This document shows positions 21,801 through 43,333 of a stretch of DNA of 48,212 nt, in pieces. A program made the translations under genes and the position numbers. The notes beneath the pieces were generated by a model, which was not told where the DNA came from, did not search any database, and was given only the letters and a program-made list of their open reading frames with translations. Source of the stretch: Kiloniellales bacterium (GTDB lineage Bacteria > Pseudomonadota > Alphaproteobacteria > Kiloniellales > J153); the NCBI GenBank assembly GCA_036444495.1, contig JAZGBC010000059.1:1-48212 (forward strand), read 5' to 3'. Numbering within the stretch: the stretch's first letter is position 1; each line of letters starts with the position of its first letter.

Positions 21801-21823
21801 GGCTCGAGATCGGGTCGAGGCCT

Positions 21824-21890
21824 AGTACCCAGGATCATAGCAGGCCGGGCGGGAACCGCCCGCCACAAGGGCGGACGGTTCCTGGGCCTT
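21824..21890. repeat. Short relative of the AGTACCC-terminated palindromic element (ugpB-ugpA spacer)
   Basis: 21824-21844 AGTACCCAGGATCATAGCAGG matches 20 of 21 nt of the left arm of the 268-bp copy at 40527. CCCAGGA (21828-21834) pairs with TCCTGGG (21880-21886). Internal GGGCGG-GAA-CCGCCC hairpin. Confidence 0.5.
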
Positions 21891-21902
21891 ATGGGGACAA
21901 CA

Positions 21903-35962: not shown

Positions 35963-36718
35963 CTGCAAAACCCCCGATGCTCCTGCAGCCTCCCGATCCG
36001 GCCGCGCCGGATCGACTCCGACCGGCGTAGACCCCCCCGGGAAACGCCAGCACTCTTCTTAAGCTTACGCTCGGGTCGAACCGCAGGAATATTCCTCCTC
36101 GCGCGCCACACGATCTCACGCCAAAACCAATTTGCGGTACTAGCGACGACCCCGAAAACGGAAGATCGCGAGCATTCAACATTCTGCGACACAGGTTTGG
36201 ACTGCCCTGTTTTCCGTGACCCGACATACTTCGCGGGCGCCAATAAAGTTACTTGATCGCCCCACGAGAAATATTAGTGAAAACCGGTTGTGTCCCCGTC
36301 TTTGAGCCTACTTTTAAGACGCATTTTCAACATATCTATTTCGCAGGCCCTTTTTTTATTATAACTCACGTCAAATTTATTCTACTTGACGCTCTTAGAG
36401 CGTACTCACCCACTGTACCCGCCGGGGGCATTCGTGACAAGCGGATCGAAAAGAGAACGGACATTTTTTTGCCGCTTGGAGTCGTGTGATGCAACGTTGC
36501 AACAGATTTGCTTTTAACAATCGGCACGCGACTTTCGATTCTTGTCTCCATCAATCCAAACCCGATTCCCCTGTTCCGTTTATACGATGTGAAAGAATTT
36601 TTCCAGCAAGTGCGCACTGGCGCAATTGGGGTGCCACTCGCCGGCATACAAAACCCGGCGCGGTGTGTTCCCGCGATCCAGGATGGAAGTTGATGGAAGG
36701 CGTCCGTCCGCGACAATG
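35963..36718. promoter_or_regulatory. AT-rich non-coding region upstream of dnaA (dnaA promoter region; possible origin-associated sequences)
   Basis: About 750 bp with no convincing ORF. Visibly lower GC than the flanks, with T/A runs such as CCCTTTTTTTATTATAAC at 36348-36365 and ACATTTTTTTG at 36461-36471. Contains the 12-bp palindrome TGCAACGTTGCA at 36490-36501. Confidence 0.4.
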
Positions 36719-36750
36719 AAAAACCGCGCCCGGTCAAACGGGGCGCGGCC
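36719..36750 (-). terminator. Rho-independent terminator of rpsT
   Basis: The minus strand reads GGCCGCGCCCC-GTTTGACC-GGGCGCGG followed by TTTTT. The 8-bp GC stem is 36724-36731 paired with 36741-36748. About 58 nt after the rpsT stop. Confidence 0.8.
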
Positions 36751-36807
36751 AACATTTGCGTGGTGCAATTCAAAGGGCGGTCAAACGTCCCTCCGCCCTC
36801 GGCAAAC

Positions 36808-38495: not shown

Positions 38496-38528
38496 AGTAC
38501 CCTCTATCACAATAGGATAGAGGGTACT
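38496..38528. repeat. 33-bp perfect palindrome with AGTACCC/GGGTACT termini
   Basis: AGTACCCTCTATC-ACAATAG-GATAGAGGGTACT, a 13-bp stem with a 7-nt loop. Overlaps the mutM stop codon (minus strand reads TAG-TACCC). Confidence 0.8.
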
Positions 38529-39366
38529 AACGCTGGCGCGCGGGACAATAGAAAGTCGAGCGGCCCGACTGCACGATGCGACGGATTCCGCCGCTTTTCG
38601 CCAGGTCACAGGTGCAATCGGGGCAGGCCTCGCCCTCCCGGCCATAGACGGCCCACTCGTGCTGGAAATAGCCCAGCTCGCCGTCGGCCTGCACGTAGTC
38701 GCGCAAGGAGGAGCCGCCGGCCTCGATCGCGCGGGTGAGCACGTCGCGCACCGCCGCGGCCAGGCGTTCGGCGCGCCGGCCCTGGACGCTATAGGCCTGA
38801 CGCCGGGGGGACAGGCCGGCGAAATACAGGCTCTCGCTGACATAGATGTTGCCCAGGCCGGCCAACACGCGCTGGTCCATGAGCGCGGCCTTGATCGGTG
38901 TGCGCTTGCCCTTGAGCCGCGCCGCCAGCACGGGACCGTTGAAATCGTTGGATAAAGGCTCCGGTCCCAGGCCTTCGAGCAGCCGGTGCCCGTGCAGCGC
39001 CGCCTCGGGCACCAGATCCATGATCCCGAAGCGCCGCACGTCGTTGAAACGGATCTCGGCGCCCCGATCGGTCAGGAAGATGACATGATCGTGGGGCCCA
39101 AGCGCCGCACCGTCGCCGTTCAGCACGAGGCGCCCGGACATGCCCAGGTGGCAGAGCAGCACCTCGCCGCCGTCCAGATGGACCAGGATGTACTTGCCGC
39201 GCCGTCCCAGGCGCTCGACCCGGCGCCCGGTCAGGCGTTTGGCGAAGTCCTCGGGCAGGGGAAAGCGCAGGTCCGCGCGGCGCTGGATTACGCGCACCAG
39301 GCGGCGGCCTTCCAGCGTGGGCCGCAGGCCCCGCACGATAGTTTCGACTTCGGGCAACTCGGGCAT
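38527..39366 (-). CDS. mutM: Formamidopyrimidine-DNA glycosylase
   Basis: N-terminal MPELPEVE from ATG 39366, the internal Met of track ORF 38527..39474. C-terminal zinc finger CPDC...16 aa...CPARQ. Confidence 0.95.
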
Positions 39367-39463
39367 GGTCGCAGGTGATGTTCGCCGGACGCCGCCGCGC
39401 GAGCGCCGCGCGGAAACCTGGGCGGCACAGTAGCGCGATCCGAACCAGCGCGCTATGGTCCTA

Positions 39464-39731
39464 AGTACCCACAATCATAGGAGGATGGCACGTATGACGG
39501 TCTTGCGGGGTCTCTCGGCTAGGAGCGTGGTCCGACGTGATGCGGGGACATCACGAGGGCCGCGCGACGACGCCCGAAGGGCGTGCAAGGCCGCCCGGAG
39601 GGTCGCTTTTCGCGGCCTCTGGAGAGCGTCATCGCCGCTTGCCGATGTCCCGCATCGCCTGCGCGGCGCTTCCTGCCCAGTGGGCGCGATAAGCCGATCC
39701 TACGTACCATCCTCCTATGATTGTGGGTACT
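39464..39731 (+). repeat. 268-bp palindromic MITE-like / structured-RNA-like element, copy A
   Basis: Left arm AGTACCCACAATCATAGGAGGATGG (39464-39488) and right arm CCATCCTCCTATGATTGTGGGTACT (39707-39731). Conserved core at 39517-39668. Ends 2 nt before the ubiE ATG. Confidence 0.85.
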
Positions 39732-39733
39732 AG

Positions 39734-40528
39734 ATGTCAGTGAAAACAAAGGATAACAGGGAGGCTGGCGCCACCACTCACTTCGGCTTCGATGAGCTTC
39801 CCGAGGCGGAAAAGGCGCCGCGGGTGCGCGGCGTCTTCGAGAGCGTGGCCAACCGCTACGACCTGATGAACGACCTCATGTCGGGCGGCATACACCGGCT
39901 GTGGAAGGCGGCCCTGCTCGACTGGCTGAACCCACGCCCGGGCATGAGTCTTGTCGACGTGGCCGGCGGGACGGCCGATGTCGCGCTGGGCGCGATCAAG
40001 CGCGTCGGTCCGGCGCGCGCCGGACCGGTCATCGTCTGCGACATGACCCCCGAGATGCTGCGCATCGGGCGCGACCGGGCGCTAGATAAGGGAATCGTGG
40101 GGCGGAACCTGCCGGGCGGCCTCTATTGGGTCTGCGGCGATGCGGAGGCCCTGCCGCTCGCCGAGCGCAGCGTGGAGGCCTACACCATCGCCTTCGGCCT
40201 GCGCAACGTGACCCGCATCCCCCAGGCGCTCAGCGAGGCGCGGCGCGTGCTCAAGCCGGGCGGGCGCTTCCTCTGCCTGGAGTTCAGCCGGGTCGTCGTG
40301 CCGCTCGTGGCCGAGCTTTACGAGCTTTACTCCTTCCGGGTGTTGCCGGCCCTGGGCGCGGCGGTCACCGGGGACGGGGACGCCTACCGCTACCTGGTGG
40401 AGTCTATCCGGCGTTTCCCGCCCCAGGAGGAACTGGCCGCCATGATGACCGAGGCGGGCTTCGAGCAGGTCCGCTACCGGAATCTGACCGGCGGAATCGC
40501 GGCACTCCACTCCGGCTGGCGTCTGTAG
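39734..40528 (+). CDS. ubiE: Ubiquinone/menaquinone biosynthesis C-methyltransferase
   Basis: Motifs THFGF, VANRYDLMNDLMSGGIHRLWK and the SAM motif VDVAGGTADVA. Confidence 0.95.
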   Translation: MSVKTKDNREAGATTHFGFDELPEAEKAPRVRGVFESVANRYDLMNDLMSGGIHRLWKAALLDWLNPRPGMSLVDVAGGTADVALGAIKRVGPARAGPVIVCDMTPEMLRIGRDRALDKGIVGRNLPGGLYWVCGDAEALPLAERSVEAYTIAFGLRNVTRIPQALSEARRVLKPGGRFLCLEFSRVVVPLVAELYELYSFRVLPALGAAVTGDGDAYRYLVESIRRFPPQEELAAMMTEAGFEQVRYRNLTGGIAALHSGWRL

Positions 40529-40794
40529 TACCCAGGATCATAGGAGGATGGCAGGAATGACGGTTTTGCAGGTTCGCTCGGCTAGGAGCGTGGTCCGACG
40601 TGATGCGGGGACATCACGAGGGCCGCGCGACGACGCCCGAGGGGCGTGCAAGACCACCCGAAGGGTCGCTTTTCGCGGCCTCTGGAGGGCGTCACCGCCG
40701 CTTGCCGATGTCCCGCATCGCCTGCGCGGCGTTTCCTACCCAGTGGCCGCGAAAAGACGATCACGCCTATCGTCCTCCTATGATCCTGGGTACT
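40527..40794 (+). repeat. 268-bp palindromic MITE-like / structured-RNA-like element, copy B
   Basis: Left arm AGTACCCAGGATCATAGGAGGATGG (40527-40551) and right arm CGTCCTCCTATGATCCTGGGTACT (40771-40794). Core at 40580-40731 is near-identical to copy A. Starts inside the ubiE TAG stop. Confidence 0.85.
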
Positions 40795-40812
40795 AGGGCC
40801 CGCGGGCGAACC

Positions 40813-42363
40813 ATGCTGCGCACAATCCGCATCCTGTGGCGTCTCCTGCACATCGCGCAGACGCTGGCCCGCCACGACATCCTCGCCGTGCTCGAGGAGT
40901 TGCAGGTCGTGCCGGGGATCGTCTGGCTGGCGCGCCTGGTGGCGCGCCGCCGCGCGGAGGGCCGGCCCGGGCAGAAGCTGGCGCGCGCGGCCAACGAGGC
41001 GGGGCCCAGCTTCATCAAGCTAGGGCAGTTCTTCTCCACCCGCGCCGATTTGCTGGGCGAAGAGCTGGCCGCCGACCTATCCGAACTGCAGGACCGCCTG
41101 CCGCCCTTCGCGAGTGCCGAGGCAAGGGCCACCATCGAGAAGGAACTGGGCCGGCCGGTCGATGAGCTTTTCGAGTCCTTCGAGGACGAGCCCATCTCCG
41201 CTGCATCCATCGCCCAGGTGCACCTGGCGGTCACCCGCGGCGAGGACGGAGAGTCCGGCCGAGAGGTCGCGGTCAAGGTGCTGCGCCCGGGCATCGAGCG
41301 CGCCTTCGAACGCGATCTGGAGCTCCTCTACTGGCTGGCCGAGATGGCCGCGCGAACCCGGCCGCGCCTGCGCCGCCTGAAACCGGTCGAGGTGGTGCGG
41401 CTTTTCGAGGAAACCGTGCGCATCGAGATGGACCTGGCGCTGGAAGCCGCTGCGGCCTCGGAACTGGCCGACAACTTCGCCGGAGACCCCAGCTACCACA
41501 CGCCGGTCATCGACTGGCAGCGCACCTCGCGCCGGGTGCTCACCATGGGGCGCATCGGCGGCACGCCCATCGACGACCGCGAGGGGCTCATCGCCGCCGG
41601 CCACGACCTGCGCGAGGTGATGACCAAGGCCGCAACGATCTTCTTTAACCAGGCCTTCCGCGACGGCCTGTTCCACGGCGACCAGCACGCGGGCAACATG
41701 TTCGTGGACGCGGACGGCAACATCGTGGCCGTGGATTTCGGCATCATGGGGCGCCTGGACCGCCAAACCCGCACTTTCCTGGCGGACATGCTGCTGGCGC
41801 TTCTGGCGCGCGACTACAAGCGCCTGGCCGAGGTGCACCTGGAGGCCGGTTTCCTGCCGCCCGGACAGTCGCCCGAGGCCTTCGCCCAGGCCCTGCGCTC
41901 TGTGACCGAGCCCATCTTCGACCGGCCCCTGCACGAGGTCTCCTTCGCCCGGCTGCTGGCGCGGCTCCTGCGGCTCAGCGAATCCTTCGACATGCCGGTG
42001 CAGCCCCAGCTTCTGCTGCTGCAGAAGAATATGCTGATGGCCGAAGGCGTGAGCCGCCGGCTCGACCCGGACCTCAATATCTGGACCCTCGCCCAGCCGC
42101 TCATCGAGGAATGGATGCGCGAGAACCGCGGCCCCGAGGCCCGGCTGCGCGGGGCGGTGGAAGAGCTTTCCACCACCCTGGAACGCCTGCCCTCGCTCGT
42201 CTCCAACATGGAGAGCGTGGCCAAGGACCTGGCCGGGGGCGGTCTGCGCCTGCATCCGGAGACCGTGGAGGCCATGGGCGGCACGGGTGGCCGGCGCGAT
42301 GCCCGCTGGGCGCTCTGGATCGCCATCGGCGCCGCCGTACTGGCGATCCTGGCGGTCTTCTAA
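40813..42363 (+). CDS. ubiB: Ubiquinone biosynthesis protein kinase-like UbiB (ABC1/ADCK family)
   Basis: Motifs ISAASIAQVH, VAVKVLRPGI and HGDQHAGNMF, plus a C-terminal TM segment. ATG 40813 is the first start outside the repeat. Track ORF 40600..42363 reads through the repeat. Confidence 0.9.
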   Translation: MLRTIRILWRLLHIAQTLARHDILAVLEELQVVPGIVWLARLVARRRAEGRPGQKLARAANEAGPSFIKLGQFFSTRADLLGEELAADLSELQDRLPPFASAEARATIEKELGRPVDELFESFEDEPISAASIAQVHLAVTRGEDGESGREVAVKVLRPGIERAFERDLELLYWLAEMAARTRPRLRRLKPVEVVRLFEETVRIEMDLALEAAAASELADNFAGDPSYHTPVIDWQRTSRRVLTMGRIGGTPIDDREGLIAAGHDLREVMTKAATIFFNQAFRDGLFHGDQHAGNMFVDADGNIVAVDFGIMGRLDRQTRTFLADMLLALLARDYKRLAEVHLEAGFLPPGQSPEAFAQALRSVTEPIFDRPLHEVSFARLLARLLRLSESFDMPVQPQLLLLQKNMLMAEGVSRRLDPDLNIWTLAQPLIEEWMRENRGPEARLRGAVEELSTTLERLPSLVSNMESVAKDLAGGGLRLHPETVEAMGGTGGRRDARWALWIAIGAAVLAILAVF

Positions 42364-42434
42364 CGACCGCCAAGCCCCTATTAACGTAGCGGTGGCTGGA
42401 TGCAAGACGCCTACACACTCGTAATAGTTGAGTA

Positions 42435-42463
42435 TTGATTAAATAACTCGACTTGATTATAAT
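42435..42463 (+). promoter_or_regulatory. Sigma-70-like promoter TTGATT-N17-TATAAT for the toxin-antitoxin pair
   Basis: TTGATT at 42435-42440, a 17-nt spacer, then TATAAT at 42458-42463. About 60 nt upstream of the antitoxin ATG, in an AT-rich spacer. Confidence 0.6.
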
Positions 42464-42490
42464 ACGTAAATTACGTAAATTACGTATATT
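42463..42490 (+). promoter_or_regulatory. Three 9-bp tandem repeats, each containing the palindrome TACGTA (candidate operator)
   Basis: ACGTAAATT, ACGTAAATT, ACGTATATT, then ACGG. TACGTA at 42463-42468, 42472-42477 and 42481-42486, immediately after the -10 box. Confidence 0.55.
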
Positions 42491-42525
42491 ACGGACTATA
42501 TAGGCAGCTATCTAGGGTAACAGTA

Positions 42526-42780
42526 ATGCAGAAAGCTTCAGCCGCAATGGTGGCTAAGAACTTTGGCAAATTTCGAGAGGCCGCCCTTTCCGAGCCGCTA
42601 ACTATTCAAAATCACGGGCGCGATTCCGTGGTTATGGTGTCGGCGAAAGAATACCACAGACTGAAGAAACTCGACCGAACGGTTCTTGCTTTTCGGGAAT
42701 TGTCTGAGCGCGAAATCCACGCCATCTCAGAATCCAAGATGGACAAACGACACGCGCATCTCGATGAACTAATGGACTAA
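42526..42780 (+). CDS. Type II antitoxin, Phd/YefM family
   Basis: 84 aa. N-terminal pattern AKNFGKFREAALSEPLTIQNHGRDSVVMVSAKEYHRLKK is typical of Phd/YefM. Lies 3 nt upstream of the next ORF. Confidence 0.75.
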   Translation: MQKASAAMVAKNFGKFREAALSEPLTIQNHGRDSVVMVSAKEYHRLKKLDRTVLAFRELSEREIHAISESKMDKRHAHLDELMD

Positions 42781-42783
42781 ATA

Positions 42784-43218
42784 ATGCCGCTACCCAAGCC
42801 GGAGCCTGGTTTAGTTCTCTCATATGGCTATCTCTGGAAGTGGCAAGATGAAAGAGGCGACGACGCTGGCGAAAAAAACCGCCCATGCGTCATCGTCCTT
42901 TCTACGGAAAATATCGACGGGGACACGGTCGTCTTGGTCGTACCGGTGACAAGCCAACAGCCCCGCCCCGACCGCCGTTCAGTGGAAATCCCAGCAAAGG
43001 TCCAAGCCCACCTGGGGCTAGACGGAGAACAATGCTGGGTCATCACTGATGAGGTGAATAAATTCATCTGGCCGGGGCCCGACCTATCCCAAATACCGGC
43101 CCGGCCCGGGGAGTTTCATTACGGATTCATACCGCCCAAACTCTATGACAAAATCATAGACGACTGCAGAGACATAGCTAAGGCTCGACAATTAAAGTCA
43201 GTGACGCGAACGGCCTAA
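42784..43218 (+). CDS. PemK/MazF-like putative toxin
   Basis: 144 aa. PGLVLSYGYLW...GEKNRPCVIVLS...VVLVVPVTSQ...VEIP...WVITDEV follows the MazF/PemK beta-barrel pattern (G-x-hydrophobic ... RP-x-VV-x-S ... VP-x-T ... D). The assignment is by eye. Confidence 0.6.
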   Translation: MPLPKPEPGLVLSYGYLWKWQDERGDDAGEKNRPCVIVLSTENIDGDTVVLVVPVTSQQPRPDRRSVEIPAKVQAHLGLDGEQCWVITDEVNKFIWPGPDLSQIPARPGEFHYGFIPPKLYDKIIDDCRDIAKARQLKSVTRTA

Positions 43219-43333
43219 TCAGCCGGGGCGGTAGAGGCTTGGGGCGAATTTCTACCCCCCGCCGGCGAAGCCTTGTCAGAAACGCCCCCGCTGTTTACCT
43301 TATCTACGCTGGACAACCGTAAAATATGAGGAA

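Follow-up and report, generated by a model that had tools for sequence, protein, structure and literature searches.

We analysed a 48,212-nt stretch of DNA from a Kiloniellales bacterium (the whole of contig JAZGBC010000059.1 of the metagenome-assembled genome GCA_036444495.1; hereafter the window; GC content 66%), in which the gene ubiE lies between two 268-nt units, copy A and copy B. Both units belong to a family without a name, whose members are small non-coding mobile elements that fold into hairpins and occur in uncultured Alphaproteobacteria. We consider it probable that each unit is one copy of a dispersed, non-coding and non-autonomous mobile element of the broad class that includes transposable elements of the miniature inverted-repeat kind (MITEs) and REPINs. 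The family is best filed as new and as an unusual variant of the bacterial hairpin-type non-autonomous elements. A preliminary description of the window had likened the unit, as a non-autonomous MITE, to Correia or ERIC elements, or else had taken it for a structured RNA module, and had assigned it to no named family. That proposal is supported by empty sites in relatives, by dispersal and by a covarying fold.

Copy A (39464-39731, sense strand) lies between a conserved block of the mutM/ubiE upstream region and the ubiE start codon, and was scored by nhmmer at 303.7 bits on the plus strand against 67.5 bits on the minus strand. Copy B (40527-40794, sense strand) scored 298.8 bits on the plus strand. 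A repeat search of the window returned one direct-repeat family, 39464-39733 and 40527-40796, which is 270 nt long, 90% identical and has a start-to-start distance of 1063 nt. Pairwise alignment of A and B showed 29 differences in 272 aligned columns (two flanking nucleotides per side included), no indels inside the 268-nt unit, and an identical stretch of 63 nt. The positions, length and common orientation first described for the two copies are thereby confirmed, as is the observation that each opens with AGTACCC and closes with GGGTACT. The terminal inverted repeats, put at about 25 nt at that time, are real and longer: the inverted arms cover 41 nt at 88% complementarity in copy A and 42 nt at 81% in copy B. 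Both copies are imperfect palindromes over their whole length (68.6% for the alignment of copy A with its own reverse complement). The arm motif occurs five times in the window, four times in element arms, against 0.68 expected. As first described, copy A ends 2 nt before the ubiE ATG (39734) and copy B begins inside the ubiE stop codon TAG (40526-40528), the A of which is its first base. Copy B was also said to fill the ubiE-ubiB spacer; it starts in the stop codon, and 18 nt remain between its 3' end and the ubiB ATG at 40813.

The preliminary description had proposed a search for empty sites in the mutM-ubiE-ubiB loci of relatives. Three syntenic loci were compared (L005, L006 and L007; UbiE 76-78% identical), and the element is absent from all three at both the A and the B position. 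The mutM-ubiE spacer measures 97 bp in these loci and 367 bp in the window, and the ubiE-ubiB spacer 5-38 bp and 284 bp, respectively. If 268 nt are taken out, the distance to the ubiE start returns to normal and the ubiE stop TAG stays intact, and the gene order of the locus agrees with that of the relatives. By comparison with these loci, copies A and B are shown to be insertions. Because their arm subtypes differ, they are most likely two separate insertions, independent of each other, on either side of ubiE. Recombination between them that excises or amplifies ubiE is plausible, since the 63-nt identical stretch present in both could mediate such loss or amplification.

The wider family was found through chance open reading frames (ORFs) that run through the GC-rich element, which were translated and used as protein queries. 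These queries worked because gene callers had annotated such ORFs elsewhere. In a protein database clustered at 90%, the sense-frame query had three matches (P0121-P0123) and the antisense-frame query about 58 at E<1e-3. In a library clustered at 50%, the sense frame gave 53 genuine cluster representatives after two spurious matches were dropped, P0205 and P0238, which are long repetitive adhesin-like proteins and not copies. More than 100 ORF-called copies were counted over public metagenome assemblies, a figure that applies across assemblies and not per genome. Nearly all matches lie on contigs of 0.4-1.2 kb in NCBI and ENA metagenome assemblies, as expected of a repeat that breaks assemblies, and related copies occur in independent NCBI, ENA and JGI assemblies. 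No Pfam domains were recorded for the ORF matches apart from those of fused neighbour genes.

Seven distinct contexts of copies were examined, and the neighbouring genes are functionally unrelated. Copies lie between infB and rbfA (L075, 122-448), in the gatC/ruvX spacer, ending 8 nt before ruvX (P0122), downstream of pdxJ and abutting the next start codon (L080, 1540-1884), and 22 nt after mutM on a syntenic 419-kb contig (L077, 5925-6192). L081 has two abutting copies (68-336 and 337-603) with one CTAG in common, L082 has a full copy (346-613) and a neighbouring truncated one, so that copies in these two loci abut or are nested, and the copy in L079 (390-623) is truncated at its internal CTAG by an insertion sequence (IS). 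Copies in other genomic contexts, which the preliminary description had proposed to look for, are thus dispersed over unrelated intergenic sites in other assemblies. The orientations of copies were clearly separated by nhmmer (for example, 304 against 68 bits) and are mixed relative to flanking genes: A, B, L075 and P0122 point the same way as the gene that follows them, and L080 and L077 are antisense to both flanking genes.

Searches with the arm motif as bait gave little. The exact motif, GTACCCANNATCATAGGAGGA, had one real match in genome contigs, a miniature copy in L001, and a single match in metagenomes, by chance, in a low-GC contig; among viral contigs it had 66 single chance matches, and a degenerate core pattern had none. 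When PLSDB plasmids were searched by BLASTN, copy A and the core consensus returned nothing or chance 30-nt matches. The arm motif was the wrong bait because the arms are hypervariable.

Nine full DNA copies formed the basis of a structure alignment (A6). On this alignment RNAalifold predicted that the ends pair into a 33-bp closing stem, and that the remainder forms a left and a right hairpin domain with a 3-bp hairpin between them. The nine-copy fold has 103 pairs with 95.9% of cells paired, and double-sided (compensatory) changes are found at 49 of the pairs. None of 500 shuffles reached any of five measures in the control, and pairing dropped to 35-46% when the partners were slid by 1-3 columns. 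The predicted folding energies of copies A and B are -164.5 and -169.7 kcal/mol, with RNA folding z-scores of -9.5 and -10.9, respectively. A single viroid-style rod of the whole unit, which is the minimum free energy fold of copy A alone, was rejected as less well supported by the comparative data: for the core, the branched fold pairs 95.2% against 80.9% for the rod and has 26 compensated pairs against 9. The fold is branched and not a simple rod, which the preliminary description had not reported.

On copy A, the 5' arm of the closing stem (P1; 39464-39497) pairs with the 3' arm (39698-39731), both on the plus strand; invariant in the 5' arm are the AGT of the tip and a TCA that forms stem pairs 12-14, and the 3' arm has an invariant TGA and the terminal ACT. 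The left hairpin domain (39498-39593, plus strand) consists of helices 2-4, with an internal CTAG at 39519 and a GTGATG/CATCAC apical hairpin, and double-sided changes affect 10 of the 19 pairs of helix 2 and, in helix 3, 4 of 10. The right hairpin domain (39603-39697, plus strand) consists of helix 6 (GGGTCGCTTTTCGCGGCCTCTGG / CCAGTGGGCGCGATAAGCCGATC), where 9 of 20 pairs show double-sided changes, and apical hairpins. In copy B the two plus-strand arms of P1 are 40527-40560 and 40761-40794. Element length ranges from 268 to 345 nt. An extra palindromic insert of 42-78 nt, CCGTCCTCCGCAGCAGCGGC...GCTGCCGCTGCGGAGGGTGG, sits at the tip of the right hairpin domain in L075 (300-360) and L080 (1625-1705), and was also seen in the translated matches P0144 and P0151.

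The closing stem is the fastest-evolving part of the element, with 42-59% identity between subfamilies against 64-77% for the core. At the low end, identity in the stem drops to 42-45% where the core still keeps 64-72%. Twenty-five of its 33 pairs covary, and those that never change are pairs 1-3 (AGT/ACT), 12-14 (TCA/TGA) and 32-33 (GA/TC). The co-variation of arms first noticed between A and B holds: CACAATC/GATTGTG in copy A stands against CAGGATC/GATCCTG in copy B, and a third compensated pair lies further in, giving three compensated Watson-Crick pairs where simulation of 29 random substitutions predicted 0.36 (P = 0.004). Between any two copies the broken pairs stay at 3-9, while the compensated pairs climb from 1-5 to 20-27 with divergence. 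This pattern fits selection for the fold in a propagating lineage, which would be followed by slight decay of each inserted copy. Evolution keeps the fold and not the sequence of the ends, which are the least conserved part of the element; this, too, is new here.

The termini AGT...ACT are invariant in all nine copies. With flanking dinucleotides close to CT on one side and AG on the other, each junction reads CTAG; of 11 junctions per side, the complete tetranucleotide was found at 6 on the left and 8 on the right. Because the element begins with AG and ends with CT, an upstream TAG stop codon is kept and CTAG is regenerated at both junctions. An AG...CT element entering CT|AG makes two new CTAG sites, which would explain abutting copies such as those in L081 and L001. 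Insertions lie exactly at the TAG stop codons of ubiE (copy B) and mutM (a 33-nt remnant in the window and a decayed copy in L005), and the miniature copy in L001 also lies at a TAG stop codon. The tie of insertion to (C)TAG sites such as stop codons is a further new observation. CTAG itself is 2.4-6-fold depleted in the window, with 24 sites observed against 58 expected from a Markov model or 150 from mononucleotide composition, and 5 of the 24 are in elements. Two other CTAG sites of the window belong to a tandem 19-nt repeat, CTAGTGGCCGNGCCNNGGA (two copies, 2408-2446), just upstream of a TctC-family receptor gene.

Two further miniature remnants were found in the window, which the preliminary description had not reported. 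The first (38496-38528, minus strand) is 33 nt long, AGTACCCTCTATC-CTATTGT-GATAGAGGGTACT, a perfect hairpin with AGTACCC...GGGTACT tips that overlaps the mutM stop TAG; it is internally deleted and its arms are of the L079/L082b subtype. At the same mutM-stop site, L005 has a decayed full copy (L005:1795-2062) and L007 is empty (CGCTAGGCTAGAC). The second (21822-21895, strand not assigned, right boundary approximate) is a degenerate miniature copy, in which a solo arm, CTAGTACCCAGGATCATAGCAGG, of copy B's GG arm variant is followed by an unrelated GC hairpin. It sits between the solute-binding-protein and permease genes of an ATP-binding cassette (ABC) transporter operon, a classic position for repetitive extragenic palindromic (REP) elements. 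The miniature copy in L001 measures 44 nt, so internal-deletion derivatives that keep both tips are known at 33 and 44 nt. The L001 copy is abutted by a different hairpin element of about 105 nt (L001:2101-2208) with arms AGTTCCACGACACAGAGATTTTGACT... and the same AGT...ACT tips and CTAG junctions; this element suggests a wider superfamily with one common insertion machinery.

The copies show several of the properties by which MITEs are recognised. They are short (268-345 nt, where MITEs are below 600 bp) and their ORFs are not conserved; terminal inverted repeats are present, as the 33-bp stem in nine of nine copies and as the 41-42-nt arms of A and B; many copies are dispersed in unrelated contexts across assemblies; and the sites of A and B are empty in L005, L006 and L007, which are distant relatives by their UbiE identity. 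In our reading the closing stem, with AGT...ACT at its tip, encloses the two conserved hairpin domains, and copies land at T|AG or CTAG sites, most of which, in this GC-rich genome, coincide with a stop codon or adjoin a start codon. The element would be moved by a trans-acting enzyme whose gene lies outside the window. This enzyme would recognise a folded single strand, either replication-exposed DNA or RNA, and not two independent double-stranded inverted repeats, because the sequence of the arms is free and their pairing is not, while the terminal three pairs, the TCA/TGA triplet 11 bp in and the core are fixed. The element is thus probably recognised as a folded single strand. As both are in sense orientation, A and B are expected to form part of the ubiE-ubiB mRNA, with structures of about -165 to -170 kcal/mol. 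Correia RNA is a substrate of RNase III, and by this analogy the 33-bp stem in the mRNA would be a likely substrate as well.

Several points weigh against a non-autonomous mobile element of this kind. The closest relative compared has 78% UbiE identity, too distant for a clean pair of filled and empty sites. Pfam scans of about 40 ORFs in the window gave no transposase or recombinase domain, several of these ORFs having no Pfam match at all, and no transposase with matching ends was found. The earlier statement that there is no transposase nearby therefore extends to the whole 48-kb window, where the same scans also gave no RAYT (Y1 HUH) domain; when long read-through ORFs were scanned against Pfam for a transposase domain fused to them, PrmA alone came up. 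The only transposase seen near a copy, in L079, belongs to an unrelated IS5/IS1182-like IS inside the element. Strand asymmetry is only moderate (on the sense strand 57 G-U against 14 A-C; alifold energies -173 against -168 kcal/mol). The junctions would read alike whether TA within CTAG is duplicated, CTAG as a whole is duplicated or nothing is, and the three models are inseparable because the ends are palindromic with the target. Finally, classical MITEs show the opposite of a conserved core between hypervariable ends, and the core may have a function of its own.

The IS of L079 (600-2135) encodes a DUF772 and DDE_Tnp_1 transposase and has perfect 20-bp inverted repeats including CTAG. It was considered as the autonomous partner of the family and rejected, as a separate IS with its own 20-bp terminal inverted repeats (TIRs) that is inserted at the internal CTAG of the element. 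Past the IS, the element does not resume, and a rearrangement must therefore have come after the insertion.

A narrower and mechanistically specific version of the mobile-element reading, a classical MITE of the IS630/Tc1-mariner type, is possible but doubtful in our judgement. Here a DDE transposase binds two double-stranded TIRs, cuts the element out, pastes it into the TA of CTAG and duplicates this TA, and the hairpin is incidental. Junctions in many copies do read C-TA-[GT...AC]-TA-G, and ubiE and mutM regain sensible stop codons once the element is deleted together with one TA. The preferred target of IS630 is the TA within 5'-CTAG-3', and TA is duplicated on insertion (Tenzen & Ohtsubo 1991, as cited in PMC2170065), and IS870 of Agrobacterium requires a CTAG target (Fournier 1993, as cited in PMC13630536). 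However, the arms differ by up to 58% between subfamilies, even between the two abutting copies of L081, and yet match within each copy; sequence-specific binding of TIRs predicts no such covariation of stem pairs, nor is there the TIR sequence conserved family-wide that it would lead one to expect, the stem being less alike between subfamilies than the core. Moreover, 12 of 18 presumed TA flanks are TA. The six departures all affect the outer base and leave the inner one unchanged, which suggests that the inner A/T is part of the element. An IS630-type transposase was not seen.

Very strong covariation around a conserved core could also mark a structured RNA with a host function, such as a cis-acting leader, an intercistronic processing module or a small RNA gene, that was multiplied and whose fold is kept for what the RNA does at each locus. 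The excess of G-U over A-C on the sense strand, the co-directional position of A, B, L075 and P0122 and the ends of several copies 2-8 nt before a start codon agree with this. We nevertheless think it unlikely. The L080 and L077 copies are antisense to both of their flanking genes, the flanking genes are functionally unrelated, relatives manage without the element at the same loci, and decayed and internally deleted copies exist. Scans for sigma-70 promoters and intrinsic terminators in and around A and B found no consensus. As to a known RNA, the cmscan against Rfam that the preliminary description had proposed leaves the family unnamed: Rfam 15 had no match at the gathering threshold in the whole window, and permissive thresholds on A, B and four other copies gave noise only (E>=0.56, <=25 bits).

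A further reading, for which we see a similarly small chance, is that the 200-nt branched core is an active nucleic-acid component (a scaffold, guide or catalytic fold, as RNA or single-stranded DNA) that would recruit a host or element-encoded enzyme and direct insertion at CTAG. Selection on both the sequence and the structure of the core despite diverged ends, the hairpin element at L001:2101-2208 and the sense-strand G-U excess are compatible with it. If true, this would be a new class of structure-defined mobile element, unlike an internally deleted insertion sequence.

That each unit encodes a small arginine-rich protein of 78-82 aa, starting from AGGAGG-N8-ATG in the left arm, is very improbable. 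In A and B one frame is indeed open throughout (78-92 aa), and an ATG follows AGGAGG at a distance of 8 nt; L075 has the open frame with this Shine-Dalgarno-like (SD-like) motif too, and gene callers annotated such ORFs in public data. The preliminary description, which saw no coding signature, was only partly right, as A and B have the open frame and AGGAGG, but neither is conserved in other family members. SD and ATG occur together in only 3 of nine copies, stops interrupt the frame in L076 and L080, 1-nt indels at alignment columns 52 and 281 shift it in 5 of nine copies, and the opposite-strand frame is equally open. Between A and B, 17 of 82 translated residues differ, and the ORF matches have no recorded Pfam domain other than those of fused neighbours. 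Coding was rejected, since frame, start signal and amino-acid sequence are not conserved over the nine copies. A local tandem-type duplication of the spacer or a contig-specific assembly artefact, to which the closeness and common orientation of A and B might point, has next to no credibility given related copies in independent assemblies, a gene order that agrees with relatives, and compensated changes between the A and B arms that are not expected of duplication and drift.

The genes around the copies are as follows. ubiE (39734-40528, plus strand) encodes a class I S-adenosylmethionine methyltransferase of 264 aa and is bracketed by A and B; ubiB (40813-42363, plus strand), downstream of copy B, encodes an ABC1 kinase-like protein of 516 aa; and mutM/fpg (38527-39366, minus strand; 279 aa), whose stop codon carries the 33-nt remnant, is divergent from ubiE. 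The conserved block upstream of copy A, CACAGTAGCGCGA...GCGCGCTATGGTC (39426-39461, plus strand), is kept at all five syntenic loci compared. Its end lies 6-9 nt ahead of the ubiE start in relatives, and it may act as a promoter from which ubiE is transcribed almost without a leader; here copy A puts 268 nt between the block and the ATG. A low-GC island (42400-43300) starts about 1.6 kb beyond copy B, between ubiB and coaBC, where relatives have a spacer of only about 95-110 bp. It carries genes for a Phd/YefM antitoxin (42526-42780) and a PemK/MazF-like toxin (42784-43218), with ACGTAAATTACGT-type repeats upstream (42463-42495). The AT-rich 840-bp dnaA-rpsT spacer (35969-36807) is a candidate replication origin. 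If it is the origin, the sense strands of A, B and the L077 copy are all on the lagging-strand template (n=3, not significant). The GC-skew profile over 48 kb was uninformative on origin position and strand bias.

Taken as mobile elements, copies A and B and the mutM-stop remnant are three family members within 2.3 kb, so that a ubiquinone-biosynthesis operon a few kb from dnaA has accumulated insertions, and A and B put a structure of about -165 kcal/mol into the ubiE leader and the ubiE-ubiB spacer. The family is a well-supported addition to the structured repeats, with about 100 base pairs of which 49 covary, and its hosts are marine or sediment Alphaproteobacteria of which little is known. 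It escapes screens that rely on Rfam, and gene callers label its copies as hypothetical proteins, which pollutes protein databases. With its fixed core, free but paired ends and CTAG-regenerating tips, it offers a way into the question of whether it is as folded single strands that hairpin repeats of bacteria are recognised.

Among known systems, the Correia elements (NEMIS/CREE), whose host is Neisseria, and the MITEs of the IS630/Tc1-mariner style are likewise small, non-coding and non-autonomous with inverted ends, have junctions compatible with TA-in-CTAG, lie in intergenic regions by start or stop codons, and are co-transcribed as long RNA hairpins. In the present family, by contrast, conservation is highest in the 200-nt core and lowest at the ends, some 100 supported pairs make up a branched fold, and the hosts are uncultured Alphaproteobacteria; the family is set apart from them by description and not by sequence comparison. 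REPINs, inverted REP doublets moved by RAYT (an IS200/IS605-like HUH enzyme), resemble it as hairpin-forming non-autonomous elements whose arms evolve together, with no clear target duplication, intergenic positions including an ABC-operon spacer, and presumed single-strand recognition. However, the element is about 2.5 times longer than a REPIN and has a conserved branched core and CTAG-type junctions, and the window has no RAYT. Instead of two inverted REP hairpins of 20-40 nt headed by GTAG, it has AGT...ACT ends and a single 33-bp stem round the 200-nt core. ERIC/IRU and YPAL elements of Enterobacteria are also whole-length imperfect palindromes in transcribed intergenic regions and show insertion-type polymorphism between relatives, but differ in size (127-168 bp), sequence and hosts, and ERIC is not known for hypervariable but paired ends. 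The attC sites of integrons are similar in logic only, with short motifs at the base of the stem and free sequence with kept pairing, as the recombinase recognises a folded single strand; unlike the present element, they measure 57-141 nt, lie in gene cassettes beside an integrase, and have R and L boxes and not AGT/ACT-CTAG ends.

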